Source of the DNA: Planctomycetales bacterium
Lineage (GTDB): Bacteria > 4484-113
Assembly: GCA_037445915.1 (NCBI GenBank)
Contig: JBBIJQ010000022.1
Span: 10,927-33,559, forward strand
Reading direction: 5' to 3'
DNA length: 22,633 nt
Shown one piece after another: positions 4,972 to 17,357 of the stretch. The position numbers and the translations under genes are program-made. The notes beneath the pieces were generated by a model. It saw only the letters and a program-made list of their open reading frames with translations, was not told the origin of the DNA and searched no databases. Every line of letters begins with the position of its first letter. Position 1 is the first letter of the stretch.

Positions 4972-5796
4972 TTAGCCGATGAAGTCAACTTTCGCCTTGA
5001 GACTGTCAGGATAGCCGCGTTCCAGGAACAACTGAACCGCATGCTTACCCAAGTCTCCTAGATCCAGAGTGTAGTCGTTTACATACATGCCGACAAAGGT
5101 ATCAGCTTTCCCGCGCTCCAAGCCCCGCCCGAATGAAAGCGCGTAATCCAACGCTTCCTGCCTATGGTCAAGTGAATACGCGATGGTAGCTTTCAAGATG
5201 CGTGCCAGTTCAAGCTTCAGGTTCTCCGGCATGTCCCGCCTCACTGCGTTCACGCCAAGCGGCAAAGGCAAGCCAGTTTCCCGCTTCCACCACACGCCGA
5301 GATCTTCCACCAGATGCAGGCCTTCGGCGGCATAGGTTAGCTGCCCTTCGTGGATAAGCACTCCTGCCGCGGAATCCCCCGCCAGCACGCGCTTGCCGAT
5401 GTCCTCAAAATACACAGCTTCCACCAGCGGCTCATCTGGCTGCATGTAGAGGCGAAGGGCGAGATACGCGCTGGTGAGCTTGCCGGGGATGGCGATGCGC
5501 GCGCCTGCCAGCTCCCCCCGCGCCATTGGCTTCGCGCTGACGATGATGGGGCCGTAGCCGTCGCCCATGCTCGCGCCGCTCGTCAGGAGCTGGTACTTGT
5601 CAGCGAGCGACGGGTATGCGGCAACGGACAGCGCGGTAATGTCATACGTCTCTGCCTGCGCCTCGGCGTTCAAAGTCTGAATGTCTTTCAAGATATGCGT
5701 GAAGCTAAGGCTACCGGTGTCAACGTAGCCGGAAGCCAGGGCGTAAAACATGAACGCATCGTCGGCGTCAGGGCTGTGTGCAAGCGTGATTTCCAC
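4972..5796 (-). CDS. mqnD: 1,4-dihydroxy-6-naphthoate synthase (futalosine menaquinone pathway)
   Basis: Motifs LAHSPDADDAFMFYAL, GYGP, IPGKLTSA, LIHEGQLTY, LPLPLG, MYVNDYT; GTG start. Confidence 0.9.
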   Translation of the reverse strand: MEITLAHSPDADDAFMFYALASGYVDTGSLSFTHILKDIQTLNAEAQAETYDITALSVAAYPSLADKYQLLTSGASMGDGYGPIIVSAKPMARGELAGARIAIPGKLTSAYLALRLYMQPDEPLVEAVYFEDIGKRVLAGDSAAGVLIHEGQLTYAAEGLHLVEDLGVWWKRETGLPLPLGVNAVRRDMPENLKLELARILKATIAYSLDHRQEALDYALSFGRGLERGKADTFVGMYVNDYTLDLGDLGKHAVQLFLERGYPDSLKAKVDFIG

Positions 5797-5846: not shown

Positions 5847-7106
5847 ATGGGGAAGACTATCATTGAAAAAATCGTTTCCGCCAAGTCCGGCGCGGAAGCG
5901 CATGCGGGAGATGTCGCCTGGATAACGCAGGATTACGTGACCGCCCGCGATTTCGGCGGCGCCAGCGTGGTGGGGAATTTCCGCGAAGCTTTTGGCGTGG
6001 ATGCGCAGGTCTTTGACCCAGCGCGCGTGTTCTTTACCCTGGACTGCAACGCCCCTGCCAACACTGTGGGCTACGCCACAAACCAGCAAATCTGCCGCGA
6101 CTTCGCCCGCGCGATGGGCCTTAAGGTTTACGACGTGGACGCTGGCATCGGAAGCCACCTGCTCATTGAAATGGGCCTCGCGCTCCCCGGCTCCACCGCT
6201 ATCGGCACCGACAGTCACTATAACATCCTCGGCGCGGTTGGCTCGTTCGGGCAGGGCATGGGCGACCTTGACGTGGCATACGGCTTCAAGCACGGCCGCG
6301 TTTGGTTTGACGTGCCGCACACAATCCGCGTGAACGTGAAGGGCAAGCTGATGTCCCACGCTTCGGCCAAAGACCTGACGCTCGCGGTTGTGAAACATTT
6401 CGGCAGCGACGGGCTCATCGGAAAGTGCGCCGAGTTCTACGGCGACGTCATTGACGCGCTGGACGTCCCTGGGCGCATAACGCTGGCGAGCATGGCGACC
6501 GAGATGAGCGCGGTGAGCATTTTTATCCCGCCCAACGACGCGGTTGTGAAGTGGCTGGCGCGGCGCACCGTCGGCAAGGTGGATAACGTCCAGGCCGATG
6601 CTGACGCGAAATACGCCGAAGAAGTGACCATTGAGCTGGGCGACATTGAGCCGATGATAGCCTGCCCGTTCTCGCCGGACAACGTGCGCACGGTGCGCGA
6701 AGTCGCCGAGGAAGGCGTGCGCATTGACAGCGGCTTCATCGGAAGCTGCACCAACGGGCGCGCCGAGGACTTCGCTTCCGCATACGCGCAGCTTGAAGGC
6801 GGCAATGTCGCAGAGCGAGTGACGCTGAAGCTCGTGCCTGCGACGCGCGAAGTTTACGCCGAGATGCTCTTCGGCGGGCTGCTGGAGAAGCTTTTCAGCG
6901 TGGGCGCGCTGGTGCACAACCAGGGCTGCGGCGGATGCGCTGCGGGGCAGGTCGGCATGACCGGCGAAGGCGAGGTGCAGGTGAGCACTTCCAACCGCAA
7001 CTTCCGTGGCAAGCAGGGCGCGGGCAGGACATATCTCGCCAGCCCGGCGACGGTCGCCGCCAGCGTGCGCGCGGGCCGCATCGCCGTTCCCGAGGTGATT
7101 AAATGA
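5847..7106 (+). CDS. Aconitase-family (LeuC/HacA/DmdA-type) dehydratase large subunit, divergent active site
   Basis: MGKTIIEKI start, GTDSH, GSCTNGR, GCGGC (three [4Fe-4S] Cys), STSNRNFRGKQG, YLASP. It has atypical ARDFGG, LDCN and GIGSH motifs. Confidence 0.92.
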   Translation: MGKTIIEKIVSAKSGAEAHAGDVAWITQDYVTARDFGGASVVGNFREAFGVDAQVFDPARVFFTLDCNAPANTVGYATNQQICRDFARAMGLKVYDVDAGIGSHLLIEMGLALPGSTAIGTDSHYNILGAVGSFGQGMGDLDVAYGFKHGRVWFDVPHTIRVNVKGKLMSHASAKDLTLAVVKHFGSDGLIGKCAEFYGDVIDALDVPGRITLASMATEMSAVSIFIPPNDAVVKWLARRTVGKVDNVQADADAKYAEEVTIELGDIEPMIACPFSPDNVRTVREVAEEGVRIDSGFIGSCTNGRAEDFASAYAQLEGGNVAERVTLKLVPATREVYAEMLFGGLLEKLFSVGALVHNQGCGGCAAGQVGMTGEGEVQVSTSNRNFRGKQGAGRTYLASPATVAASVRAGRIAVPEVIK

Positions 7107-7618
7107 GCGAGTTCATTATCAAAGGCAAGGCGTTCCCGCTTCTGGACGGCGACGGCGCGCTCGTGAACAACATAGACACCGACATGATCTTCCACAACAA
7201 GTGGCTGCACATCACGAAGATGGAAGAAATGGGGCAGTACGCGCTGGGCAACCTCAAGGGCTTTGAGGATTTCCCCAAGCGCGTGCAGCCGGGGATGTGG
7301 GTTGTCGCAGGGCGCAACTTCGGCGCAGGCAGCAGCCGCCAGCAGGCGGTGGACTGCTTCAAGGCGCTTGGCTGCGTCGGCATCATCGCCATATCCGTCG
7401 CGCCGATTTACTTGCGCAATGCTATAAACGCCGGTATGCCCGTCGCGCAGGTGCCATGCCTCGCGGGAATGGTGCAGGAAGGCGACGAGATGGCGCTGGA
7501 CATGGAAGCCGGCACGCTTTCCATCGCGCGCACCGGCACTCTCATCCAGGCTGAACCCCCCATTTCCTCCGTCCAGCGCGAGATATACCAGGCCGGCGGC
7601 TTGATGAAGCTGGGGTAG
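7103..7618 (+). CDS. Aconitase-family (LeuD/HacB-type) small subunit
   Basis: NIDTDMI, GRNFGAGSSRQQA, IYLRNAINAG; ATGA overlap with the large-subunit gene. Confidence 0.92.
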   Translation: MSEFIIKGKAFPLLDGDGALVNNIDTDMIFHNKWLHITKMEEMGQYALGNLKGFEDFPKRVQPGMWVVAGRNFGAGSSRQQAVDCFKALGCVGIIAISVAPIYLRNAINAGMPVAQVPCLAGMVQEGDEMALDMEAGTLSIARTGTLIQAEPPISSVQREIYQAGGLMKLG

Positions 7619-7633
7619 GGTTTATCTTGGTAG

Positions 7634-7663
7634 TTTCCGATTATCGGAAATATGTGGTATAAT
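7634..7663 (+). promoter_or_regulatory. Promoter with overlapping palindromic operator upstream of the XRE-peptidase gene
   Basis: The inverted repeat TTTCCGA-TTA-TCGGAAA (7634-7650) covers a TTCCGA -35 candidate, spaced 17 nt from TGG-TATAAT (-10 at 7658-7663). The ATG follows 8 nt later with no SD. Confidence 0.75.
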
Positions 7664-7671
7664 ATAAGCGT

Positions 7672-8853
7672 ATGGAAACGCTTGATTATCACCGCTTGGG
7701 TGCTTCAATTCAGTCTCTCCGCAAGGCGCGTAACATCAGCCAAACAGAACTCGCAAAGGCTATCGGCCTCAAAAGCCCACGCGCAATTTCCGAGCTTGAG
7801 AGCGGCAAACGGGAATTGCGCGGCTCGGAAATACGTGCATTGTGCGACAAACTGGAATGCACGCTCGCCGAGCTTTTTGGCCTGGAGGCAGACCCGCTGG
7901 CGTCAACATCCGGCGCGTGTCTGCGCGGCGATGATGCGAAGGACGAGGAGCTGGTCCGGATTGTGCGAAGGGCGCTGCGCCATGCGAAACTACTTCGTGA
8001 AATTGAAGAGGTCTTAGGGCGCACACCCCTAACTCAGCTGCCGTTGCTGGACAAGAGCTATCCGCTTAGCACGACTTACGAGAGCGCGCGCGAGCAAGCG
8101 ATTGAGCTGGCTGGCTGGATGCGTAATCTCATTGGGGAAAAAGGCGGGCCGGTTGGGAATCTGGAGAAGGCTCTTGAGGCGCACGGAGTTGTTTGGGCAA
8201 CCTGGGACCTGCCGAAAGGGGTTTCGGGATTAACCCTGCGCTGCAACGGAAGGCCGGTCATAATCCTTGAGTCCAGCGAACATGAACAGCGGCAGCGGTT
8301 CACAATGTCTCACGAACTAGCGCATGTTCTTATGGACACATCTGAACATGCTGTGCTAACCCGCGATTACCGTGAAACGGGCAAGGGCCGCAAGAGCCAA
8401 ACAGGAATCGTTGAGCATCGCGCCAACCACTTCGCGGGAGCGTTCTTAATGCCGGAGGCCGCAATACGGGAGTTTGCCGAAGGAAGGTTCAACCTAAGTG
8501 AACCAGTCAAAAACGAGGACATTTCAAAGCTGGCCCGTCATTTTCAAGTAAGTTTTCAGGCGGTGGCTACAAGGCTGGCTCATCTAGGCTTCATCACCTG
8601 GGATCGTTATAGGGAAATCAAAGATAGCCAACTAGAGATGAGAAACCTGCAGCAGATGCCAGGGCAGCTATCAGAAGTCCTTATGGTGTGGGCTGCTAAG
8701 CTTCAGTCTTCGCCGCGCATGCTGGAGCTTATTATTGAAGCACTGGAAAAAGACCTAATCACATTCGGCCGCGCCTGCGAGTTGGCGATGACAGATAGAG
8801 AATCTCTGGAAATGTTTCTCGCCGAATACAGCCGGGTAGAGAATGGAGGGTAG
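7672..8853 (+). CDS. XRE-family HTH + ImmA/IrrE (M78) zinc metallopeptidase fusion
   Basis: N-terminal HTH (LRKARNISQTELAKAIG..ISELESGKR), then RQRFTMSHELAH (HExxH), EHRANHFAGAFLMP, LARHFQVSFQA, and a C-terminal ITFGRACEL motif. Confidence 0.93.
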   Translation: METLDYHRLGASIQSLRKARNISQTELAKAIGLKSPRAISELESGKRELRGSEIRALCDKLECTLAELFGLEADPLASTSGACLRGDDAKDEELVRIVRRALRHAKLLREIEEVLGRTPLTQLPLLDKSYPLSTTYESAREQAIELAGWMRNLIGEKGGPVGNLEKALEAHGVVWATWDLPKGVSGLTLRCNGRPVIILESSEHEQRQRFTMSHELAHVLMDTSEHAVLTRDYRETGKGRKSQTGIVEHRANHFAGAFLMPEAAIREFAEGRFNLSEPVKNEDISKLARHFQVSFQAVATRLAHLGFITWDRYREIKDSQLEMRNLQQMPGQLSEVLMVWAAKLQSSPRMLELIIEALEKDLITFGRACELAMTDRESLEMFLAEYSRVENGG

Positions 8854-9397
8854 AGGGCGCAGCGGGATTGGCGAAGATGAACTACTGGTTACACCGGCTG
8901 TAATGGACTCAAGCATCCTCTATAACTTCGTTCTAATCGGCTGCGTTGACCATTTGGTTTGCGCCTTTGAACAACTGGCAATTACGCCAAGGCTGCGAAG
9001 TGAGATGAGCAAGCACGACATCCTGGCTTCCATTAGTAAGCATGTTGCCGTCAAGCGGATCGTCGTGCTTGACCCTACGCTTGAAGAGAACTTTGTTGCG
9101 GTTTCAATTGTTTCAAGAGGGGCATATGGGAAAAGCCTAAGTGAAACTGATAAGGAAATCATCTCCATCGCAAAGTCGCGTGGATTGAGAGTGCTCTCTG
9201 AAGATACGCCAATGCGAAAAGTAGCTATTGAGCAGGGAATAAGGGAATCCGACCTATTCAACACGCGAGAATGCCTACAGAAGCTTGTTGATTGTGGAAG
9301 ACTAGAGTTAGAGGAAGCGAAAACACACTTTGTGAAAATCAACGAACAGCGTGTTTTACACCGGCATCCTGCGCTTCCCTGGGAAGACGATAGTTAG
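8843..9397 (+). CDS. PIN-domain protein (DUF3368-like), putative ribonuclease/toxin
   Basis: PIN acidic pattern VMDSSIL, SE, LSETDKEIISIA, VLSED. It overlaps the upstream peptidase gene; the exact start is uncertain. Confidence 0.75.
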   Translation: MEGRGRSGIGEDELLVTPAVMDSSILYNFVLIGCVDHLVCAFEQLAITPRLRSEMSKHDILASISKHVAVKRIVVLDPTLEENFVAVSIVSRGAYGKSLSETDKEIISIAKSRGLRVLSEDTPMRKVAIEQGIRESDLFNTRECLQKLVDCGRLELEEAKTHFVKINEQRVLHRHPALPWEDDS

Positions 9398-9475
9398 GTT
9401 AACTTGATTGGATGTTTTCCGCGTCCAATTGGATGCGTTTTGCATACAGACAAAGCTGTTGTTTTCTTTAATTAG

Positions 9476-10600
9476 TTACACCCCGCTCACGGTAACGCCC
9501 CGCTTGGCGAGATGCCCCATGAGCCCGGTGAAGCATGCATCATCAAGCCCCAAGTATTCCGGCGTGGAAACGCCCTTGCGGGTGAACACGCCGTCGCGGA
9601 TGAGGCGCACGGCTGCGGTGCCGGTATAGCCGGTCGTGCGCGCCATGGAAGTCGTCTCGCCCTCGCGGTCGTAAGCGTCAAGCAAGTCGTAGGTGAGCGC
9701 CAACTCCTTGCCGTCCTTCACGCCGCTGACCGCCACGCGCATGACGGTGACATCCTCTTCGCCTTCGCGCATCTTCCACTGCGGGAACAGCAGCGCCGCG
9801 GCAACGTCCAGCGGCCGCACCTTCCCCCCGCGCACTTCAAGCTCACCCTTGCCGAACAGCCCCGCCTCGCGCAGCGCGCGCATCTTGTCGGCATGACCGG
9901 GGTAGCGCAGCGTCTTCTCCACCATCTCGTCTGCCTTCAGCACGTTCACGAGCGAGCGCAGCCCGTCGCTGATGAATGCCTCAAGCTTGCCAATGCCAGC
10001 AAAGTCAAGCTGCTCCACTTCCGAAAGCGCGTCCTTAAGCGCGACTTTGCCCCCGCGCACGATGCGCGCCGGCCGCGTGTATTCCTCCAGCACGTCCACC
10101 GCCGAGAACACGACGCGGTAGTTCCACGGCGGCTCCGGCGTGCGCGGCAGCCCGCCTACGTAGATGGCGATGCTGTGCACTGTATCAAGTTGCGTCGTTG
10201 CATGCGCCGCCAGCGCGTGCGAAAGACCCGGCGCAACGCCGCAGTCAGTTATCGCGATGACGCCAAGCTGCTTCGCCGCATCGTGCAGCGGAGTGGGGTC
10301 TTCGGGCATGAAGCTAATGTCAACGACATTGCGCCCGGCTTCAATAATCGCCGCTAGCGACTGGAAGCCCATGTGCCCCGGCAGCGCCAGCACCGCGATG
10401 TCGTGCTCGCGCGCAAGGCGGCCGATGGTTGGCGCGTGGTGCAGGTTCGCGGCTTGCGTAGTGACGCCGGGGATGCCCGCCAGCGTTTGCAGCGCGGCTT
10501 CGTTCGCGTCAATCGCGGTGACTTCAAACTCGCGGTCCATAGCCAGGTCGCGCACCATCGCGCCCCCGACGAGGCCGCATCCAAATACTACAGCTTTCAT
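9476..10600 (-). CDS. Saccharopine dehydrogenase-family protein, most like L-lysine 6-dehydrogenase
   Basis: Rossmann GCGLVG; ALPGHMGF, VDISFMPEDP, GVAPGLS, YVGGLP, EEYTRPAR, EAFISDGLRS, TLRYPGH and SMARTTGY match my recollection of the Pyrococcus horikoshii lysine 6-dehydrogenase. Start placed at ATG 10600, with an AGGTGG SD. Confidence 0.85.
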   Translation of the reverse strand: MKAVVFGCGLVGGAMVRDLAMDREFEVTAIDANEAALQTLAGIPGVTTQAANLHHAPTIGRLAREHDIAVLALPGHMGFQSLAAIIEAGRNVVDISFMPEDPTPLHDAAKQLGVIAITDCGVAPGLSHALAAHATTQLDTVHSIAIYVGGLPRTPEPPWNYRVVFSAVDVLEEYTRPARIVRGGKVALKDALSEVEQLDFAGIGKLEAFISDGLRSLVNVLKADEMVEKTLRYPGHADKMRALREAGLFGKGELEVRGGKVRPLDVAAALLFPQWKMREGEEDVTVMRVAVSGVKDGKELALTYDLLDAYDREGETTSMARTTGYTGTAAVRLIRDGVFTRKGVSTPEYLGLDDACFTGLMGHLAKRGVTVSGV

Positions 10601-10612
10601 ACAGGCCACCTG

Positions 10613-11728
10613 TTAGAGCTTAGAGACGATAGCTTCGGCCATCTCCATCGTGGAGCTGCTGCCGCCCATATCATATGTGCGCACCTTGCCTTCGGCAATG
10701 ACCGCCGCAATCGCAGCCTCAAGCTTTTCCGCTCCCGCGCCTTCTCCGAGCCAGTCAAGCATCAGCTTCGCCGAAAGCAGCATGGCGATCGGATTCACTT
10801 TGTATTGACCGGCGTATTTCGGCGCGCTGCCATGCGTCGGCTCAAAGACCGCGTACTTGTCGCCGATATTCCCGCTGGCGGCAAAGCCCATCCCGCCCAC
10901 GAGTTGCCCCGCAAGGTCGCTGATTATGTCGCCAAACATGTTGGAGGCGACGAGCACGTCGTATGCGAGCGGGCTCTTGAGCAGCCACATGCACATCGCG
11001 TCAATGTTCGCCTCGTCAAAAGCAATGCCGGGGTAATCCTTCGCAAGCTTGCGCCCGGCGCGCACCATCATTCCGCTTGTCTCGCGCACGACGTTGGGCT
11101 TTTCCACCATAGTCACGCGCTTGCGCCCGTGCTTCTTCGCGTATTCAAATGCCTGGCGCGTAATGCTCTCACAGCCCTTCACCGTGTTCAGGCGAACGCT
11201 TATCGCCATTTCATCATTCGGGGTCGCGGAAAACCGCTTCGCCTTCGGGTGCGTGTCCAGCGCGGCGCGCACGGCGTCGGGGATGGGGTGCCACTCTATC
11301 CCCGCGTAAAGGTCTTCAGTGTTCTCGCGAAAGACGGTTAGGTTGATGCCCTCGCAGTAAACCAGCGGGTTTCCGGGGTAACCCTTGCAGGGGCGAAGCG
11401 CCGTGTGCAAATTGAACTCCTGGCGCATCTGCACGATGGGCGAGAAGTAGCTCAGCCCCTTGCCCTGCAATTCCGGCGCAAGCTCGGCGGCGGCCTCGTC
11501 TCGCGGCTTGCTGGTGATAGCGCCGAAAAGCGCGCAGTCAGTGTTGCGCAGTAGCTCTTTGGTGCGGTCGGGGAAGGGGTTGCCCTCGCTGCGCCAGAAC
11601 TCCCAGCCGATGTCGCCGTGAACGTATTCAGCGTCCAGCTTCATCGCGTCAAGCACGAGGCGCGCGGCCTCCATCACGTCGTTGCCCACTCCGTCGCCGG
11701 GCAGCCATGCAATCCGGTACTTAGCCAT
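10613..11728 (-). CDS. Isocitrate/isopropylmalate dehydrogenase family protein, homoisocitrate dehydrogenase-like
   Basis: PGDGVG, RENTEDLY, KPNV, NMFGDIISDL, EPTHGSAP. The substrate loop ALFGAITS..YFSPIVQMR resembles fungal Lys12 (ALFGAVQS..YSSPIVALR, from memory). GGAGG SD. Confidence 0.88.
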   Translation of the reverse strand: MAKYRIAWLPGDGVGNDVMEAARLVLDAMKLDAEYVHGDIGWEFWRSEGNPFPDRTKELLRNTDCALFGAITSKPRDEAAAELAPELQGKGLSYFSPIVQMRQEFNLHTALRPCKGYPGNPLVYCEGINLTVFRENTEDLYAGIEWHPIPDAVRAALDTHPKAKRFSATPNDEMAISVRLNTVKGCESITRQAFEYAKKHGRKRVTMVEKPNVVRETSGMMVRAGRKLAKDYPGIAFDEANIDAMCMWLLKSPLAYDVLVASNMFGDIISDLAGQLVGGMGFAASGNIGDKYAVFEPTHGSAPKYAGQYKVNPIAMLLSAKLMLDWLGEGAGAEKLEAAIAAVIAEGKVRTYDMGGSSSTMEMAEAIVSKL

Positions 11729-11743
11729 TATTAATTCCTCCGG

Positions 11744-12229
11744 TTACTTCTTCGCGTATTTATCGCGCAGGTATTCAATGAGCCCGCCGGCTTCCAGTAT
11801 CGCCGTAACTTCGGCGGGGAACGGCGGAAAGGTGAAGTCCCCCTTGCTCGTGCGCACGACGCCTGCCGCGAAATCCACTTCCGCCGTGTCGCCGTTTTCA
11901 AGCGCGCGCGCGGCTTCGGGGAGCGCCAGCGCGGGCAGGCCGCTGTTAATGCAGTTACGGTAAAAGATGCGGGCGAAGCTTTCGGCGATGACCGCCGCCA
12001 CGCCGCAGTATTTGGGCGCGAGCACGGCCTGTTCGCGGCTTGAGCCGCATCCGAAGTTCTTCCCCGCCACGATGACGTCGCCGGGCTGCACCTTCTTAGC
12101 GAATTCGGGGTCAAGGTCCTCCAGCGCATGCTGCGCCATTTCCGCAGGCTCGGAAACGGTGTAGGTGTATTTGCCGGGGAACAGCACGTCGGTGTTCACG
12201 TCGTCGCCGTATTTGAAGACTTTTCCCAT
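11744..12229 (-). CDS. Homoaconitase-like (LeuD/HacB-type) small subunit
   Basis: The true start is ATG 12229 (TAATG overlap). [42 protein letters not shown] and SSREQA recall the C-terminal domain of fungal Lys4. Confidence 0.92.
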
Positions 12230-13479
12230 TAGAAGTACTCCTTCGGCGACACAATCTCGCCGGCGATGGCGCTGGCGGCGACGGTCGCGGGGCTTGCCAG
12301 GTAAATCTCCGAGTTGGGGTCGCCCATGCGCCCCTTGAAGTTGCGGTTCGCCGTGGAGAGGCATACCTCGCCCGGCGCCAGCGCGCCTTCGTGCGCCCCC
12401 AGGCAGGGGCCGCAGCCTGGATTCATCCATACTGCGCCGGCGTCCACCGACGGCGCGACTAAGCCCTCGTCAATGGCCTGACGGTAAACCTTCATAGACG
12501 CCGGGAAAATTAGCAGCCGCACGCTCGGCGCTGCATGCTTTCCCGCGAGCACCTTGGCCGCGGTGCGGATGTCTTCAATGCGGCCGTTGGTGCAGGTGCC
12601 GATGAGCGCCTGGTCAATGCGCTTGCCCTTGTATTCGCCCACCGGCTTCACGTTGTCCACCGTGTGCGGCGCGGCGACCATCGCGTCCAGCGCGCCAAGG
12701 TCAAAGGAATGCTTCGCAATATATTTCGCATCGGGGTCGGAAAGCAGCGCGGCATGTTTTCCGTTTGGCTCGTTGAGGAATTCTGCGGTCACTGCGTCCG
12801 GAGGGAAGTAGCCGTTCTTCGAGCCCATCTCTGCCGATAGGTTGCACAGCACCATGCGGTCGGAGATGGAAAGCTGTGCTGCGGCATCCCCCGTGAACTC
12901 CACGGCGAGATATAGCGCGCCGTCCGCGCCGATGTGCCCGATTATCGCGAGCGCCAGGTCTTTCGCCGATACCCACGGCTTGAATGCGCCGGCAAGCTCA
13001 AGGCGCATCGTCTCCGGGCAAAGCAGCCACAGCCCGCCGGATACCCACACTCCCGCCGTCTCGGTGCGCCCCACCCCGGCGGCGAATGCGCCGACAGCGC
13101 CCGCAGTGGGCGTGTGCGAATCGCTGCCAAGGATGAGCCGCCCGGGGTAGGCGTAGCCGTCCTCCACCATGATTTGGTGGCAGACGCCGCGCCCGACATC
13201 GTAGAAGTGCGTGATGCCCTGCGCCGCCACGAACTCGCGGATGGCCTTGTGGTTGGCGGCATGCTTGTTGTCGGCGGCGGGCGTCACGTGGTCAAGCACG
13301 ATGACCGCGCGGTCGGGATACTTGAGTTTGGTAACGCCAATGGACGGCAGCTTCTTGAGGATGGCGGCGGAGTTGTCGTGCGAGAGGATGAAGTCGGGCT
13401 CCAGCGTGACAATCTCCCCCGCGTGCACTTCGCGGCCGGCCTTGAGGCTGAACACCTTTTCGCTAAACGTTTTTCCCAT
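12229..13479 (-). CDS. Homoaconitase-like (LeuC/HacA-type) large subunit
   Basis: SHDNS, VLDH, GVCHQ, GSDSHT, GTCTNGR, GCGPCLG, STANRNFKGRMG, YLASP; canonical catalytic residues are present. SHDNS recalls fungal Lys4. Confidence 0.93.
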   Translation of the reverse strand: MGKTFSEKVFSLKAGREVHAGEIVTLEPDFILSHDNSAAILKKLPSIGVTKLKYPDRAVIVLDHVTPAADNKHAANHKAIREFVAAQGITHFYDVGRGVCHQIMVEDGYAYPGRLILGSDSHTPTAGAVGAFAAGVGRTETAGVWVSGGLWLLCPETMRLELAGAFKPWVSAKDLALAIIGHIGADGALYLAVEFTGDAAAQLSISDRMVLCNLSAEMGSKNGYFPPDAVTAEFLNEPNGKHAALLSDPDAKYIAKHSFDLGALDAMVAAPHTVDNVKPVGEYKGKRIDQALIGTCTNGRIEDIRTAAKVLAGKHAAPSVRLLIFPASMKVYRQAIDEGLVAPSVDAGAVWMNPGCGPCLGAHEGALAPGEVCLSTANRNFKGRMGDPNSEIYLASPATVAASAIAGEIVSPKEYF

Positions 13480-14023
13480 ATTTCAGCACCAACGGTTCAA
13501 AGTTGAGGAAGTCCGCGTGGTTCACGATTATCGCTTCCAGTGTCGCGCGCGCATTGTCGCCTTCGTGGCTGTGATACATCACGCCGTGAACTACCGCGTC
13601 CGGCAGGCCCCATTTCATGCAAAGCCCGCTGCCCGACACGGGATGGCGCAGCAACTTGCCGCTCGCGCTCTTCACGTATGCGCCGTCCTTGTCGCGCCTG
13701 TATTCAAGCAGCTTGCCCACGTCGTGCAGCAGCGCGGTTGCCAACAAAATGTCGCGGTCGGCCTGCATCGCGCCTTCGCCCGCCCAGCTTGCGCTAAGCG
13801 AATCGGCGATGGCGAGCGCGGTGTTGGTCACGCGCCGCGTGTGGTCAAGGAAGCTCGCGGGGCATCCCTTGATGAGCAGCGTGAAGGGCATCTGCGCCAT
13901 GTCTTCGGGCTTCCAGCCGCCCATCTCCAGCGCGTCGGCGAACGCGGCGATGACTTTGCCGCGCAGCGCGCCGTCCTTGAACAACCCAAGCTCGGGTATC
14001 AGCGTGAAAAGTTCGTCGTTCAT
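13463..14023 (-). CDS. HD (HDIG-type) domain metal-dependent phosphohydrolase
   Basis: DHTRRV, LLHDVGK, RHPVSG, YHSHEGD, NHADF; it overlaps both neighbours. Confidence 0.9.
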   Translation of the reverse strand: MNDELFTLIPELGLFKDGALRGKVIAAFADALEMGGWKPEDMAQMPFTLLIKGCPASFLDHTRRVTNTALAIADSLSASWAGEGAMQADRDILLATALLHDVGKLLEYRRDKDGAYVKSASGKLLRHPVSGSGLCMKWGLPDAVVHGVMYHSHEGDNARATLEAIIVNHADFLNFEPLVLKYGKNV

Positions 14024-14805
14024 TTTTTCTCCAATTCGCGGGGCGCGGGCCCGTCATAGATTGCTTCCGAGGCGACGATGTTGCGCATCGGCTTTTCGCG
14101 GGTGACTTCTTCGTGGTAATGCGCGGCCATTCCGGCGACGCGCGGCAGCAGGAAGAAGAAGTTGCTGACCTCCACCGGGAACTCCAGCTCGCAAAGCAGC
14201 GCCGCCACTGCGCCGTCCACGTTGAGCGGCAGCGGCTTGCCCGTCTGCGCCGACACTTCCGCGCCGATGAGCTGCGCAAGCTTGAGGTAGGGGCCTTCAC
14301 GGCCCGCCTCGCGCGCCAGCTCAATGAGCCGCTTTGTGCGCGGGTCGTCGGTATGCACGCGGTGGCCAAAGCCTGCAAGGCGCTTCTTTTGCTCCAGCGC
14401 CTGGCGCACGTATTCCTTGGCGAATTCCTCCGGCGTCTTCTTGCTCGCCTCCATCAAGTCATGCGCGTAAAGGAACATGCGCATGGCGGGCTCAATCGCC
14501 GCGCCGTGGTGCTTGTTGATGGAGAGCACTCCCGCCGCCAATGCCGCGTTCAGCGGGGCGCCGGTGGTCGCGGAAATGCGCGCGGCCTGCGCCGACGGGG
14601 GCGTTATGCCGTGGTCAATGCTGGCCAAGAGCATCGCGTCGTAGAGCTTCTCCTCGGCGGGGCTGGGCAGCCTGCCGTGGAAGAGCAGGAAGATGCCGCC
14701 CGCGAGGCTGACATGCCCCATCAGCTCGTCAATGCGGTAGCCGCGCACGCGGATCTCGTTTGGCTTGATGCTCGTTATCGCCGTTTTCCAGGTTTTATCA
14801 GTCAT
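14020..14805 (-). CDS. Citryl-CoA lyase-like protein (short citrate-synthase fold)
   Basis: 261 aa; WKTAIT, IRVRGY, DHGITPPS, HHGAAIE, GFGHRVH..DPR, LNVDG. Confidence 0.9.
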   Translation of the reverse strand: MTDKTWKTAITSIKPNEIRVRGYRIDELMGHVSLAGGIFLLFHGRLPSPAEEKLYDAMLLASIDHGITPPSAQAARISATTGAPLNAALAAGVLSINKHHGAAIEPAMRMFLYAHDLMEASKKTPEEFAKEYVRQALEQKKRLAGFGHRVHTDDPRTKRLIELAREAGREGPYLKLAQLIGAEVSAQTGKPLPLNVDGAVAALLCELEFPVEVSNFFFLLPRVAGMAAHYHEEVTREKPMRNIVASEAIYDGPAPRELEKK

Positions 14806-15710
14806 TATTTCCTCATCCTTGAAAGGACTTCGGCGGTCGTCGCCGGGAGGTCCTCAAAGTTTTCCACGATGACGGCGCCCGCGGAGCGCAGCGCGTCAAC
14901 CTTGCTTTGGTAGCCGCCGCGCCCGCCTTCAACAATCGCGCCCGCGTGCGAAAAGCGCGTGCCTTCCTCCGCCTGCTTGCCGCCGATGTAAGCGACGAGC
15001 GGCTTCGTGAACTCGCCGCGCCGCATCATCTCCGCGACGCGCTCTTCCTGCGTCGTGCCGATTTCGCCGAACATGACGACGAGGTCGGTCTCCGGGTCGT
15101 CCTGGAAGAGCTTCACTATCGCGGGATGCGGCAGCCCGACGATGCTGTCGCCGCCGACGTGCACGATGGTGCTCGCGCCGATGCCCGCTTTCTTCAGGTA
15201 ATACGCGATGCTGGAAGTGATGCCGCCGCTTCGGCTGCTTATGCCCACGCGCCCCGGCGTGAAGAAGCGCCCTGCGGCTTCGGGGCTTCCGCCCATCATC
15301 CCCAGCACGCCCTTCCCCGGCGAGAGGCAGCCCAGCGTGTTCGGGCCGAGGAAGCTCGCGCCGCGCTCGGCGGCGAACTTCGTGAGCTTCATCACGTCGT
15401 GCAGCGGGACGCGGTCGGGGACGATGACGACGAGCTTCACGCCTGCGTCCATCGCCTCCATCGCCGCGTCCGCCGCGCCCGGCGCGGGCACGAACACGAC
15501 GCTCGCGTCAATCTGCCCGACGGCTTCGGCCGCCTGGCGCACGCTGTCAAACACCGGCACGCCCAGCGTTTCCTCGCCGCCGCGCCCCGGCGTCACCCCC
15601 GCGACGACCTTGGGGCCGTAGCCGAGCATCAGCTTGCTGCGCGCCTGGCCTTCGCGGCCGGTGATGCCCTGCACGACGACGCGGGTGTTTTCATTTACGA
15701 GTATGCTCAT
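14805..15710 (-). CDS. Acyl-CoA synthetase (NDP-forming) alpha subunit, SucD/citryl-CoA synthetase small-subunit-like
   Basis: MSILVNENTRVVVQGITG, GVTPG, FVPAP, GPNTLG, SRSGG, GEIG, FSHAGA (phospho-His). VPDRVP replaces the usual ITEGIP. Confidence 0.92.
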   Translation of the reverse strand: MSILVNENTRVVVQGITGREGQARSKLMLGYGPKVVAGVTPGRGGEETLGVPVFDSVRQAAEAVGQIDASVVFVPAPGAADAAMEAMDAGVKLVVIVPDRVPLHDVMKLTKFAAERGASFLGPNTLGCLSPGKGVLGMMGGSPEAAGRFFTPGRVGISSRSGGITSSIAYYLKKAGIGASTIVHVGGDSIVGLPHPAIVKLFQDDPETDLVVMFGEIGTTQEERVAEMMRRGEFTKPLVAYIGGKQAEEGTRFSHAGAIVEGGRGGYQSKVDALRSAGAVIVENFEDLPATTAEVLSRMRK

Positions 15711-17251
15711 TTCGCGCCCCGCTTCGCAAGGTATTCGTCAAAGCCGGGAATGGGCAGGTCTATGCGCAGCGAGCGCTTGCGTATTTCAAAGCACGCCATT
15801 TCGCAGGCGAGGCATTCGGTGCAGCGCTTAGCCGATTCATCGGCTGGCTCCTTCAGGCGCGGCTTGCCGTCCACCGCCTCCAGTATCTCCACATGGCAGC
15901 TTGCGATGCAGGGCTTGTTCTCGCAACTTGCGCAAATCGCATGGTCAAAGCTGATGCGGCCGCTGCGTATCTTGAACGCGTATTCTTCCTTTGCGGGAGC
16001 GGTGCGGCAAGTCGGCTCGCACTCATACGGCGCGACCGGCGGATATTCTTTCACCAATTCCGCCAGACGCGAGGCGCAGAACGCCGCGCTGTCGTCCCTG
16101 CCATAAGCCTCCACCGGCACCGGCAGGTCGGCGAGGAAGCGCGTGAGGATGTCTATCGCGACTTCTTCCTTGTTCCCGCCGAGGCGTATTACCGCGGGGA
16201 CATAGAGCGGCCATTCGCGGAACGCCTTGACCATGCCGCGCGCGGAGTGGAACTGCTCCTGGCTGGCGACGCCGCTGCCGCTCGCGAAGTAGCCGACGAT
16301 GCCGCCCTGCGCGAGGATGTGCTTGGCGGCGCGGTAAACCTTCGCCGCGCTGGGGTTGCCGCTGGTGTCGCAGAAGTTCTTGGCGGTGAAGCCGTTGCGC
16401 ACCAGCGCGTCCATGCTCATCATGGAGCCGCCGCCGCCTGCGCCGTGGAAGCCCACCAGCCTGTCGCCCTTCGCGCCAAGCTCCAGGAAGTAGAAGGTGC
16501 CTCGGTGGTCGGTGGCTTCGTAGGCCGCCGCGATTTTCTCCAGCTCCGTGGGAGGATGCCCGATTTCACGGGCGATTTCCACCTCAAGCTCGGGATGGCG
16601 CGGCACTGCGTAATCGTCAACCGAGAAATGGCAATCCGCCGCGACCAGCGTGCCGTCATCAAGTATGACCACGGGGTTCACTTCCAGGCTGCGCGCTTCT
16701 TCGGCGAGGAACACGCGCACGAGGCTGACGAGAAAGTCTGCGACGACGCCAAGCTCCTTGCCGCCGAAGCCGCATTCCACCGCGATGGCGCGCGCTTCAA
16801 ACGGGCGCAGGCCCAGCGCGGGGTCAAAGGGCTTGCGCACCAGCTTCGCGCGCCTTTCCTTCGCCATGTCTTCAACGCCGGTGCCGCCCCGGTCTGCAAG
16901 CACGACAAGCGGGCCGGGGATTTCATCGGAGACGAGGCAGGCGGCGAAAAATTCGCGCGCGATGGGAAGCTTCTGCTCAACGAGCACTAACTCAATGGGG
17001 AAGCCGCCTACGACCTTGCCCAGCATCTCCGCCGCTGCATCCTTGGATTCATCGGGCGTGTCGCAGAACTTGATGAGCCCCTTGCCAGCGCGGCCGGTGA
17101 CGAACGCCTGCGCCTTCACTACGACCGGCCCGCCAATGCGCGCAGCCGCCTCCGCCGCGCCTTGCGGGGATGTGGTTGTTTCGCCTGCGGGGATAGTTAT
17201 GCCGAAGCTTGAGAGGATGCTTTTCGCTTTGTGTTCAAGTAGTTTAGCCAT
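15707..17251 (-). CDS. Acyl-CoA synthetase (NDP-forming) beta subunit, SucC/citryl-CoA synthetase-like, with C-terminal ferredoxin-like domain
   Basis: Start ATG 17251 (MAKLLEHKAK). VVKAQ..TGRAGKG, LEVNP, GAGGGGSM, DTSGNP, VIRLGGN; C-terminal CASCENKPCIASC and CTECLACEMAC. Confidence 0.9.
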   Translation of the reverse strand: MAKLLEHKAKSILSSFGITIPAGETTTSPQGAAEAAARIGGPVVVKAQAFVTGRAGKGLIKFCDTPDESKDAAAEMLGKVVGGFPIELVLVEQKLPIAREFFAACLVSDEIPGPLVVLADRGGTGVEDMAKERRAKLVRKPFDPALGLRPFEARAIAVECGFGGKELGVVADFLVSLVRVFLAEEARSLEVNPVVILDDGTLVAADCHFSVDDYAVPRHPELEVEIAREIGHPPTELEKIAAAYEATDHRGTFYFLELGAKGDRLVGFHGAGGGGSMMSMDALVRNGFTAKNFCDTSGNPSAAKVYRAAKHILAQGGIVGYFASGSGVASQEQFHSARGMVKAFREWPLYVPAVIRLGGNKEEVAIDILTRFLADLPVPVEAYGRDDSAAFCASRLAELVKEYPPVAPYECEPTCRTAPAKEEYAFKIRSGRISFDHAICASCENKPCIASCHVEILEAVDGKPRLKEPADESAKRCTECLACEMACFEIRKRSLRIDLPIPGFDEYLAKRGAK

Positions 17252-17357
17252 TCGCCACCCGCCTAAGATTATACGGTCTTTCCCTCCCCCCGATAACCCC
17301 CTGCCTGTAATCAAGCCTATGCGCTAGAATCATCGCAACTATATTCCGGTGGCTTAT
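17252..17357. promoter_or_regulatory. Divergent promoter region for the CoA-ligase operon and sppA
   Basis: Minus-strand TATAAT (17273-17268) lies 16 nt before ATG 17251, with a GGCGGGTGG SD-like tract. Plus-strand TAGAAT (17325-17330) and GGTGG precede ATG 17358. Confidence 0.55.

Follow-up and report, generated by a model that had tools for sequence, protein, structure and literature searches.

The gene pair at positions 5847-7618 of a 22,633 nt stretch of DNA from a Planctomycetales bacterium (GTDB Bacteria; 4484-113; assembly GCA_037445915.1, contig JBBIJQ010000022.1, positions 10,927-33,559 of the forward strand), the whole of which will be referred to as the window, is, judged by its sequence, an intact two-subunit [4Fe-4S] hydro-lyase that belongs to a separate clade of the aconitase family, one both widespread and uncharacterised. 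The pair is designated LeuC*D*, with LeuC* as the large and LeuD* as the small subunit, and lacks both catalytic histidines of the family. A conserved gene module includes it as a second aconitase-type enzyme that is not redundant with the first. The core of this module consists of a canonical LeuCD-type pair, an IDH-type dehydrogenase of the Iso_dh family (designated IDH) and a small HD-domain protein (HD), and its front end is usually a short citrate-synthase-fold lyase (Ccl) together with an ADP-forming CoA ligase (subunits CcsA and CcsB), or an ACL-like or CitF-like substitute. The evidence bearing on lysine is new here.

Active site of LeuC*D*

The pair is encoded by two overlapping genes:

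5847-7106, plus strand: LeuC* (P0001), 419 amino acids, large subunit of the histidine-less aconitase-family hydro-lyase (Pfam Aconitase)
7103-7618, plus strand: LeuD* (P0002), 171 amino acids, small swivel-domain subunit (Pfam Aconitase_C)

The LeuC* stop and the LeuD* start overlap in ATGA with GAGGTG located 8 nt upstream, so that the two genes are translationally coupled. Pairwise alignment with the canonical subunits encoded in the same window gave 38% identity for LeuC* (against the large subunit P0003, 12229-13479) and 40% for LeuD* (against the small subunit at 11744-12232). A sequence-only reading had claimed that the three cluster cysteines, the DSH motif and the serine of GSSR are intact in the divergent pair, that HD/QD is changed to RD (Arg34), DH to DC (Cys67), GxxHQ to GIGSH and SSRE to SSRQQ, and that the paralogue at 12229-13479 keeps the canonical residues; all of this was borne out by the alignment. 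In the large subunit, SHD of P0003 is replaced by ARD, LDH by LDC and GVCHQ by GIGSH, and in the small subunit GSSREQ is replaced by GSSRQQ. Further replacements concern the equivalents of Asn258 (now Ser215) and Arg452 (now Lys389) in the large subunit and, in the small subunit, Asn (now Asp25), Pro-Gly (now His31-Asn32) and Ala-Arg (now Gly/Ala100-Ala101). In mitochondrial aconitase numbering both catalytic histidines are lost, with Cys67 at the position of His101 and Ser103 at that of His147. Residues that were kept include Cys301, Cys361, Cys364, Asp66, Asp122-Ser123-His124, Glu219 and Asn383-Arg384 in LeuC* and Ser77-Ser78-Arg79 in LeuD*.

In aconitases, as outlined in mechanistic passages of PMC8184944, the serine acts as base and the cluster as Lewis acid, whereas His101 protonates the hydroxyl and His147 sits in the iron-water network. 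Since the cluster ligands, the base serine, Asp66, DSH, Glu219 and Asn383-Arg384 are all retained, iron-sulfur hydro-lyase chemistry is expected for LeuC*D*. The loss of His101 and His147 together with the gain of the invariant residues Arg34, His104, Lys389 and His31-Asn32 suggests, however, that the substrate sits differently and that its hydroxyl is protonated by another residue.

Family cut-offs were passed (PF00330, 261 bits against 28.7; PF00694, 41.1 against 22.8), as were the broad NCBIfam models NF001614 (396.3 against 385) and TIGR02087 (116.3 against 108.95), but no narrower ones. TIGR02086 and TIGR01343 were missed, as were all equivalog models for aconitase and for the LeuC/LeuD and HacA/HacB subunits. 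The homoaconitase models were failed at 374 against 385.7 (TIGR01343, which P0003 passes at 516.1), 296.4 against 550 (NF040615) and 96.2 against 230 (NF040604), and the leucine-pathway equivalogs at 313.1 against 610.65 (TIGR02083, LEU2), 164.6 against 560.25 (TIGR00170) and 95.3 against 245.85 (TIGR02084). AcnD together with PrpF provides an alternative methylcitrate dehydratase route, and the AcnD model (TIGR02333) was likewise failed, at 45.6 against 1419.85 bits.

Clade members are usually named 'isopropylmalate dehydratase' in the databases. These automatic names and the passing score for NF001614 (396 against 385) would fit a standard 3-isopropylmalate isomerase serving leucine synthesis, or a gene copy in decay. 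However, the genome from which the window derives (1.79 Mb, 90% complete) contains no HMGL-like (PF00682) synthase, so that no LeuA-type or homocitrate-synthase-type gene is present; it has a single Iso_dh, which lies in the operon described below, two LeuC homologues, both in the window, and no citrate-synthase-fold gene besides the lyase. With no such synthase, only the in-operon Iso_dh and only these two LeuC homologues, a leucine role is very unlikely, and an ordinary leucine isomerase was ruled out by the absent LeuA-type synthase, the single Iso_dh and the equivalog scores far below cut-off (LEU2, 313 against 610.65; HacA_Meth, 296 against 550). The reading frames are intact and translationally coupled, and five replaced active-site positions are near-invariant within the clade, which argues against decay as well and leaves this explanation hardly credible.

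A widespread clade

A pattern scan with one genome per GTDB species yielded at least 600 stretches, of which 584 were confirmed, placing the clade in at least 584 species genomes. The best 80 loci, every one of them from a metagenome-assembled genome (MAG), represent Chloroflexota, Acidobacteriota, Planctomycetota, Gemmatimonadota, Zixibacteria, Fermentibacterota, Krumholzibacteriota, Bipolaricaulota, Thermoplasmatota, Heimdall-, Hod- and Bathyarchaeia, and others. The motif ARDF[GA]G was detected in all 120 best database matches, the query included. These 120 proteins were combined with the 80 loci, two sets that may overlap, into a census of 200 large subunits. Arg34 and Lys389 were found in all 200, Ser/Thr103 and His104 each in 191 of 193 matched sequences, and Ser215 in 179 of 179. 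In 70 small subunits Asp25, His31, Asn32, Ser77-Ser78-Arg79 and Gln80 were invariant, whereas 30 canonical partner small subunits carry Asn, Pro-Gly, SSR-Glu and Ala-Arg at the same positions. Since the same replacements recur across 200 homologues, they reflect neither chance nor decay. Fused LeuC*-LeuD* forms also occur.

Position 67 was variable, with Cys in 126, Leu in 52 and Thr in 9 of the 200 sequences (other residues, 3; unmatched, 10). Because this position varies among Cys, Leu and Thr, the hallmark of the clade is the loss of a histidine and not the gain of a cysteine. The proposed rewiring of DH to DC therefore holds for the lost histidine but not for Cys67 as its catalytic replacement, which was ruled out.

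A quick, midpoint-rooted maximum-likelihood tree, whose rows included no authentic LeuC or HacA reference, resolved LeuC*, the partner LeuC and the fused aconitases as one group each (SH-aLRT, a likelihood-based branch support, of 100, 98, and 98, respectively). The 76 rows comprised 41 LeuC* (every second of the 80 loci plus that of the window), 25 partner LeuC together with P0003, and 9 fused aconitases from relatives.

Neither a characterised member of the clade nor a homocitryl-CoA route was found in the literature covered, which did not extend to subscription journals. According to one abstract, aconitase X alone had lacked annotation within the aconitase superfamily (PMC5144071). In the literature the superfamily passes for functionally mapped, yet this clade, which spans many bacterial and archaeal phyla and at least 584 species genomes, has lost two textbook catalytic histidines and fixed another set of residues.

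Linkage of LeuC*D* to a conserved gene module

Synteny was counted by tblastn of the window proteins against the best 80 clade loci. LeuD* adjoins LeuC* in 69 of the 80, and at least one module gene (lyase, ligase, HD, canonical LeuCD or IDH) is present in 41. The individual counts were 14 for CcsA, 16 for CcsB, 21 for Ccl, 23 for HD, 25 for canonical LeuC, 29 for canonical LeuD and 25 for IDH, and of the 39 loci whose flanks reach 5 kb or more on each side, 25 carry a module gene. Gene orders are kept across Chloroflexota, Acidobacteriota, Gemmatimonadota, Planctomycetota, Zixibacteria and Thermoplasmatota: CcsA-CcsB-Ccl-HD-LeuC*-LeuD*-LeuC-LeuD(-IDH) was found in L006, L012 and L013, CcsA-CcsB-Ccl-HD-LeuC-LeuD-IDH-LeuC*-LeuD* in L007, L008 and L049, and IDH-HD-fused LeuC*D*-LeuC-LeuD-ACL-like in L054, L063 and L075. 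In L024, L040 and L062 a CitF-type CoA-transferase replaces the ATP-grasp ligase beside canonical LeuCD, which suggests that the acyl-CoA is made or used by interchangeable means.

The 24 species genomes of the phylum that includes the window genome gave a corresponding picture. LeuC*, called at E ≤ 1e-100, was present in 14 of these genomes. The short lyase was detected in 13 of the 14 (the exception being G060) but in none of the ten genomes without LeuC*, whose citrate synthases are full-length only. Thus, the divergent pair co-occurs with the ligase-lyase operon, as the sequence-only reading would predict, both by synteny in many phyla and by distribution in its own phylum (13 of 14 versus 0 of 10).

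Nevertheless, 39 of the 80 loci carry no module gene in the flanks examined. Among these non-syntenic genomes 15 are without any citrate-synthase-fold gene, 12 have only full-length forms and 12 have short or ACL-like ones. LeuC*D* might therefore function independently on another hydroxy-acid that has nothing to do with the lyase, such as citramalate, methylcitrate, a dimethylmalate-type or an imported acid, with linkage that is only partial; the Fermentibacteria context of alanine racemase, NamZ and phosphodiesterases would fit such a function. We consider this quite unlikely, as module synteny recurs in unrelated phyla and as the Fermentibacteria-type genomes retain both the IDH-HD pair and another gene of the aconitase family. 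Their IDH homologue is 51-53% identical to the module IDH, and an HD homologue adjoins it in four of five Fermentibacteria-type genomes. At least one aconitase-family match was obtained in 39 of the 39 non-syntenic genomes, with a single candidate in two. Since the Fermentibacteria-type genomes keep them, IDH, HD, LeuC*D* and a second aconitase-type enzyme form the conserved core, to which a variable front end is added.

HD adjoins the IDH homologue even in genomes without a citrate-synthase-fold lyase (L111, L112, L113, L115). In Fermentibacterota and Aegiribacteria (L045, L051, L059, L065, L067, L071) LeuC*D* is the last member of a series of genes that all point the same way and otherwise comprises alanine racemase, an MBL-fold protein, NamZ exo-muramidase and YfcE phosphodiesterase, a set with a cell-wall-recycling flavour.

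Gene arrangement in the window

The genes surrounding LeuC*D* are the following:

4972-5796, minus strand: VitK2_biosynth gene (MqnA/MqnD-type, futalosine pathway), divergent, approximately 50 bp from LeuC*
7672-8853, plus strand: helix-turn-helix (HTH, XRE-type) and M78/IrrE-domain gene, first gene of a low-GC cassette, outside the enzyme system
8843-9397, plus strand: second cassette gene, 184 amino acids, whose only match, a faint PIN-like one, stays below cut-off (E 0.049)
9476-10609, minus strand: saccharopine-dehydrogenase-fold protein, last gene of the operon, closest to the Pyrococcus horikoshii L-lysine 6-dehydrogenase (PDB 3ABI)
10613-11728, minus strand: beta-decarboxylating dehydrogenase (Iso_dh family), sole Iso_dh in the genome
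11744-12232, minus strand: canonical LeuD/HacB-type small subunit (GSSREQ)
12229-13479, minus strand: canonical LeuC/HacA-type large subunit (P0003) with all usual catalytic residues
13463-14023, minus strand: small HD-domain protein, a faithful module partner
14020-14805, minus strand: short citrate-synthase-fold lyase (citryl-CoA-lyase-like), sole citrate-synthase-family gene of the genome
14805-15710, minus strand: succinyl-CoA-synthetase alpha-like subunit (CcsB-like)
15707-17314, minus strand: ATP-grasp succinyl-CoA-synthetase beta-like subunit (CcsA-like), likely start at 17251

The pair had been described as converging on this operon with an AT-richer XRE/PIN insert in between. Convergence was confirmed, as was the drop in GC content (0.513 over bases 7619-9475 compared to 0.628 and 0.639 on the flanks), but the PIN assignment rests on the faint match given above. 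A terminator-like hairpin follows the second cassette gene at 9404-9437. The cassette, which resembles a mobile toxin-antitoxin-type module, is present in the window (genome G000) and in its relatives G046, G042 and G043; in G044 and G045 it is absent, and pair and operon converge there at a distance of 63-71 bp. The layout of the family, f1, reads Mqn-like(-) / LeuC* LeuD*(+) / LysDH-like-IDH-LeuD-LeuC-HD-Ccl-CcsB-CcsA(-), with the VitK2_biosynth gene at the same position in all fetched loci. The C-terminal tail of the CcsA-like subunit contains eight cysteines in two ferredoxin-like CxxC...C motifs, for which no Pfam call was obtained at E 0.001.

Proposed reaction

From sequence comparison, we propose that LeuC*D* may act as a dedicated dehydratase and so make up one half of a two-enzyme (homo)aconitase, a reading that we regard as a good possibility though short of probable. 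The hydroxyl and a carboxylate of the substrate would bind to the unligated cluster iron held by Cys301, Cys361 and Cys364, and the proton would be abstracted by Ser78 of the small subunit. His104, Lys389, Arg34 and the small-subunit His31 would stand in for the lost histidines, as the acid in place of His101 and in the water network of His147, and these clade-invariant residues may hold the substrate in a different orientation. LeuC*D* would then perform only the 'citrate-mode' dehydration of the 2-hydroxy-tricarboxylate of the module to the cis-alkene; the canonical pair would rehydrate this alkene in 'isocitrate mode', followed by decarboxylation of the product by the dehydrogenase. If LeuC*D* is such a dedicated dehydratase, this fold would be shown to run the same chemistry with other acid/base residues.

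In this lineage the tricarboxylate may be homocitrate, formed from 2-oxoglutarate and acetyl-CoA via homocitryl-CoA and, given the si-type fold of the lyase, probably the (S) enantiomer. The sequence-only reading had argued in the same way, and the argument appears stereochemically sound: by the Cahn-Ingold-Prelog rules, an acetyl arm that a si-type fold brings into the pro-S-like position would give (S)-homocitrate. Known homocitrate synthases, which are relatives of re-citrate synthase, give (R). A rebuilt partner enzyme would thereby be explained, as a normal one would face the wrong arm of (S)-homocitrate. Citrate, in contrast, is prochiral and would create no need for a rebuilt enzyme.

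Evidence on a lysine link

The module would feed 2-oxoadipate towards lysine, ending at the L-lysine 6-dehydrogenase homologue of the operon. A wider version of this proposal, namely a third lysine route that is independent of LysA and LysW, is found in many uncultured anaerobic bacteria and archaea and has LeuC*D* as its signature enzyme, is in our view unlikely but worth stating. In such a route the lyase and the CoA ligase would replace homocitrate synthase and give (S)-homocitrate, LeuC*D* would yield cis-homoaconitate, the canonical pair and a homoisocitrate dehydrogenase would make 2-oxoadipate, and the lower branch would end in reductive amination by L-lysine 6-dehydrogenase.

The gene at 9476-10609 matched PDB 3ABI over its full length with an E value of 1.4e-62, the next best match being a saccharopine reductase at 1.7e-14. 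In a passage of PMC10413350 that cites Yoneda 2010, 3ABI is given as the L-lysine 6-dehydrogenase of Pyrococcus horikoshii. In the window genome DapA is present but no LysA (TIGR01048) was found. In the phylum LysA scored over cut-off in 12 of 24 genomes, comprising 2 of the 14 with LeuC* and all ten without it (Fisher test, p = 7e-5, a value that is overstated since related genomes are not independent). At the fetched loci of the two exceptions carrying both LysA and LeuC* (G058 and G059), only Ccl-HD-LeuC was present. The two genes replace each other within three families (genera g5 versus g1-g4, g6 and g8 versus g7 and g9, and G060 versus G061). The class of G065 comprises five genomes, all with LeuC* and none with LysA, and holds no LeuC*-less member for contrast. 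In other phyla LysA was over cut-off in 14 of 40 module-syntenic genomes (the 41 loci minus L003, which belongs to the window's own genus) and in 8 of 39 non-syntenic LeuC* genomes.

Two known lysine routes were also considered. A LysW-type aminoadipate pathway as the explanation for the missing LysA was rejected, as LysW was not found in the window genome and scored over cut-off in only 6 of 80 related genomes, and a fungal Lys1-type saccharopine dehydrogenase was rejected because no AlaDh_PNT domain was found in the window genome. The lysine-dehydrogenase homologue was also rejected as a marker of the module.

Several of these results weigh against a lysine role. LysW and AlaDh_PNT (Lys1-type) searches turned up no known lower lysine pathway in the window genome, and among the 80 genomes LysW was over cut-off in only 3 of the 67 LysA-lacking and 3 of the 13 LysA-bearing ones. 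LysA and LeuC* occur together in 22 of 79 genomes outside the phylum. The lysine-dehydrogenase homologue is present in 21 of 24 phylum genomes with or without the module; it lies in the operon only in family f1, adjoins LeuD* in two Zixibacteria loci, and a close copy was found in only one of five large genomes that are without LysA and LysW. Five Fermentibacteria-type genomes hold LeuC*D* and IDH-HD without a citrate-synthase-fold gene or a convincing HMGL synthase. Some neighbours in other phyla have a citrate flavour, and the window genome lacks any further citrate synthase, aconitase or IDH, so that the module could be its sole 2-oxoglutarate route. In addition, all genomes are MAGs, of which the members of this phylum, the part covered by the completeness rating, are 62-96% complete, and kinship among them makes the samples non-independent. 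The original suggestion that the divergent pair supplies a missing dehydration or isomerisation step is thus partly supported, namely by its linkage and by the lysine evidence but not by a known lower pathway.

The citrate-flavoured neighbours, namely Ldh_2 (malate-dehydrogenase-type), ACL-like fusions, 2-oxoacid:ferredoxin oxidoreductase, malic enzyme and CitF, lead to a different assignment, in which the module links oxaloacetate and acetyl-CoA to 2-oxoglutarate via citryl-CoA, citrate and isocitrate. LeuC*D* would convert citrate to cis-aconitate and the canonical pair cis-aconitate to isocitrate. With 250.6 against a cut-off of 212, the lyase indeed scores as a member of the NCBIfam 'citryl-CoA lyase' subfamily, and the lack of other enzymes for these steps in the window genome fits as well. 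We nevertheless consider this assignment somewhat doubtful. A normal aconitase-type enzyme suffices for a prochiral substrate, so that the assignment gives no reason for a rebuilt second one, and it accounts neither for the lysine 6-dehydrogenase homologue in the operon nor for the complementary distribution of LysA. Moreover, the relatives G041-G045 carry the module on top of a full-length citrate synthase, a fused aconitase of approximately 660 amino acids and a second Iso_dh, the same set as in G047, which is module-less and LysA-positive. Since a separate tricarboxylic acid (TCA) cycle set is present, housekeeping conversion of citrate to 2-oxoglutarate is not the task of the module in this lineage, and for the phylum the data weigh against a citrate function that is purely housekeeping. 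Genus g1 (G000, 90% complete, and G046, 62% complete) seems to have lost this full-length citrate synthase, fused aconitase and second Iso_dh of the family, and the module is then its sole tricarboxylate enzyme set.

Alternatively, each pair might catalyse a whole isomerisation at a single chain length, such as citrate/isocitrate for one and homocitrate/homoisocitrate for the other, with a bispecific lyase, ligase and dehydrogenase carrying oxaloacetate to 2-oxoglutarate and on to 2-oxoadipate in two rounds of elongation. The Thermus homoisocitrate dehydrogenase is bispecific, and the module dehydrogenase is equally near to IDH (225 bits) and homoisocitrate dehydrogenase (213 bits) structures; the module is also the only set for both needs in the window genome. 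However, relatives with a TCA set of their own keep both pairs, and an enzyme that has lost both catalytic histidines is more easily reconciled with a single step than with full isomerisation, which makes two rounds of elongation decidedly improbable.

A link to lysine would matter for genome-based metabolic models, by which the 67 LysA-lacking genomes tested, nearly all of them without LysW, would be scored as lysine auxotrophs, perhaps wrongly.

Comparison with known systems

The best solved relative of LeuC*D* is the isopropylmalate/citramalate isomerase MJ0499/MJ1277 of M. jannaschii (PDB 4KP1, 4NQY, 3VBA), with E values of 6e-84 for the large and 1.5e-28 for the small subunit. Both share the two-subunit architecture, the cluster cysteines, DSH, NRNF and the serine of GSSR. 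Where MJ0499/MJ1277 has VHD, FDH, GVCHQ, TNMAIE and NFRGRQG, however, LeuC*D* has ARD, LDC, GIGSH, ASMATE and NFRGKQG, and in contrast to that system the window genome carries no leucine or citramalate synthase. Second best was the methanogen homoaconitase HacAB, MJ1003/MJ1271 (PDB 4KP2, 2PKP), at 3.6e-68 and 2.4e-22. The fold is the same at subfamily level, but LeuC*D* reaches only 296 and 96 bits compared to equivalog cut-offs of 550 and 230. HacAB performs both half-reactions, according to work cited in a section of PMC3556520.

The two-enzyme precedent for homocitrate to which the sequence-only reading had appealed is in print: in the fungal/Thermus aminoadipate pathway, as summarised in that section, homoaconitase catalyses only the step between homoaconitate and homoisocitrate, and homocitrate is dehydrated by aconitase (PMC3556520). 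In fungi (Aco2/aconitase and Lys4) and in Thermus (aconitase and homoaconitase) the two half-reactions are thus divided between two aconitase-family enzymes, and in the module two aconitase-family pairs travel together with an IDH-type dehydrogenase. In those systems, however, the first enzyme is a monomeric aconitase and its substrate comes from homocitrate synthase, whereas here both enzymes are LeuCD-type heterodimers, one of them histidine-less, and the window genome carries no homocitrate-synthase-type gene.

Aconitase X (AcnX) acts as dehydratase only, and a non-homologous lysine takes over the acid role of His101; it is a [2Fe-2S] or [4Fe-4S] enzyme with non-tricarboxylate substrates, as far as described in passages of PMC8184944. 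Unlike LeuC*D*, AcnX belongs to another family, is not a member of PF00330 and is no relative at the level of family sequence. A similar logic applies to the methylcitrate cycle, where (2S,3S)-methylcitrate needs a separate dehydratase, PrpD (PMC3556520, in the section on this cycle). There, the product of a citrate-synthase-fold enzyme is not dehydrated by a normal aconitase-type enzyme, so that an extra dehydratase is required, and the same may apply to LeuC*D*, which differs from PrpD in that the latter is not an iron-sulfur enzyme. On the model of both precedents, the aminoadipate pathway and the methylcitrate cycle, LeuC*D* would act in the module as a dehydratase working in 'citrate mode', with the canonical pair as a hydratase in 'isocitrate mode'.

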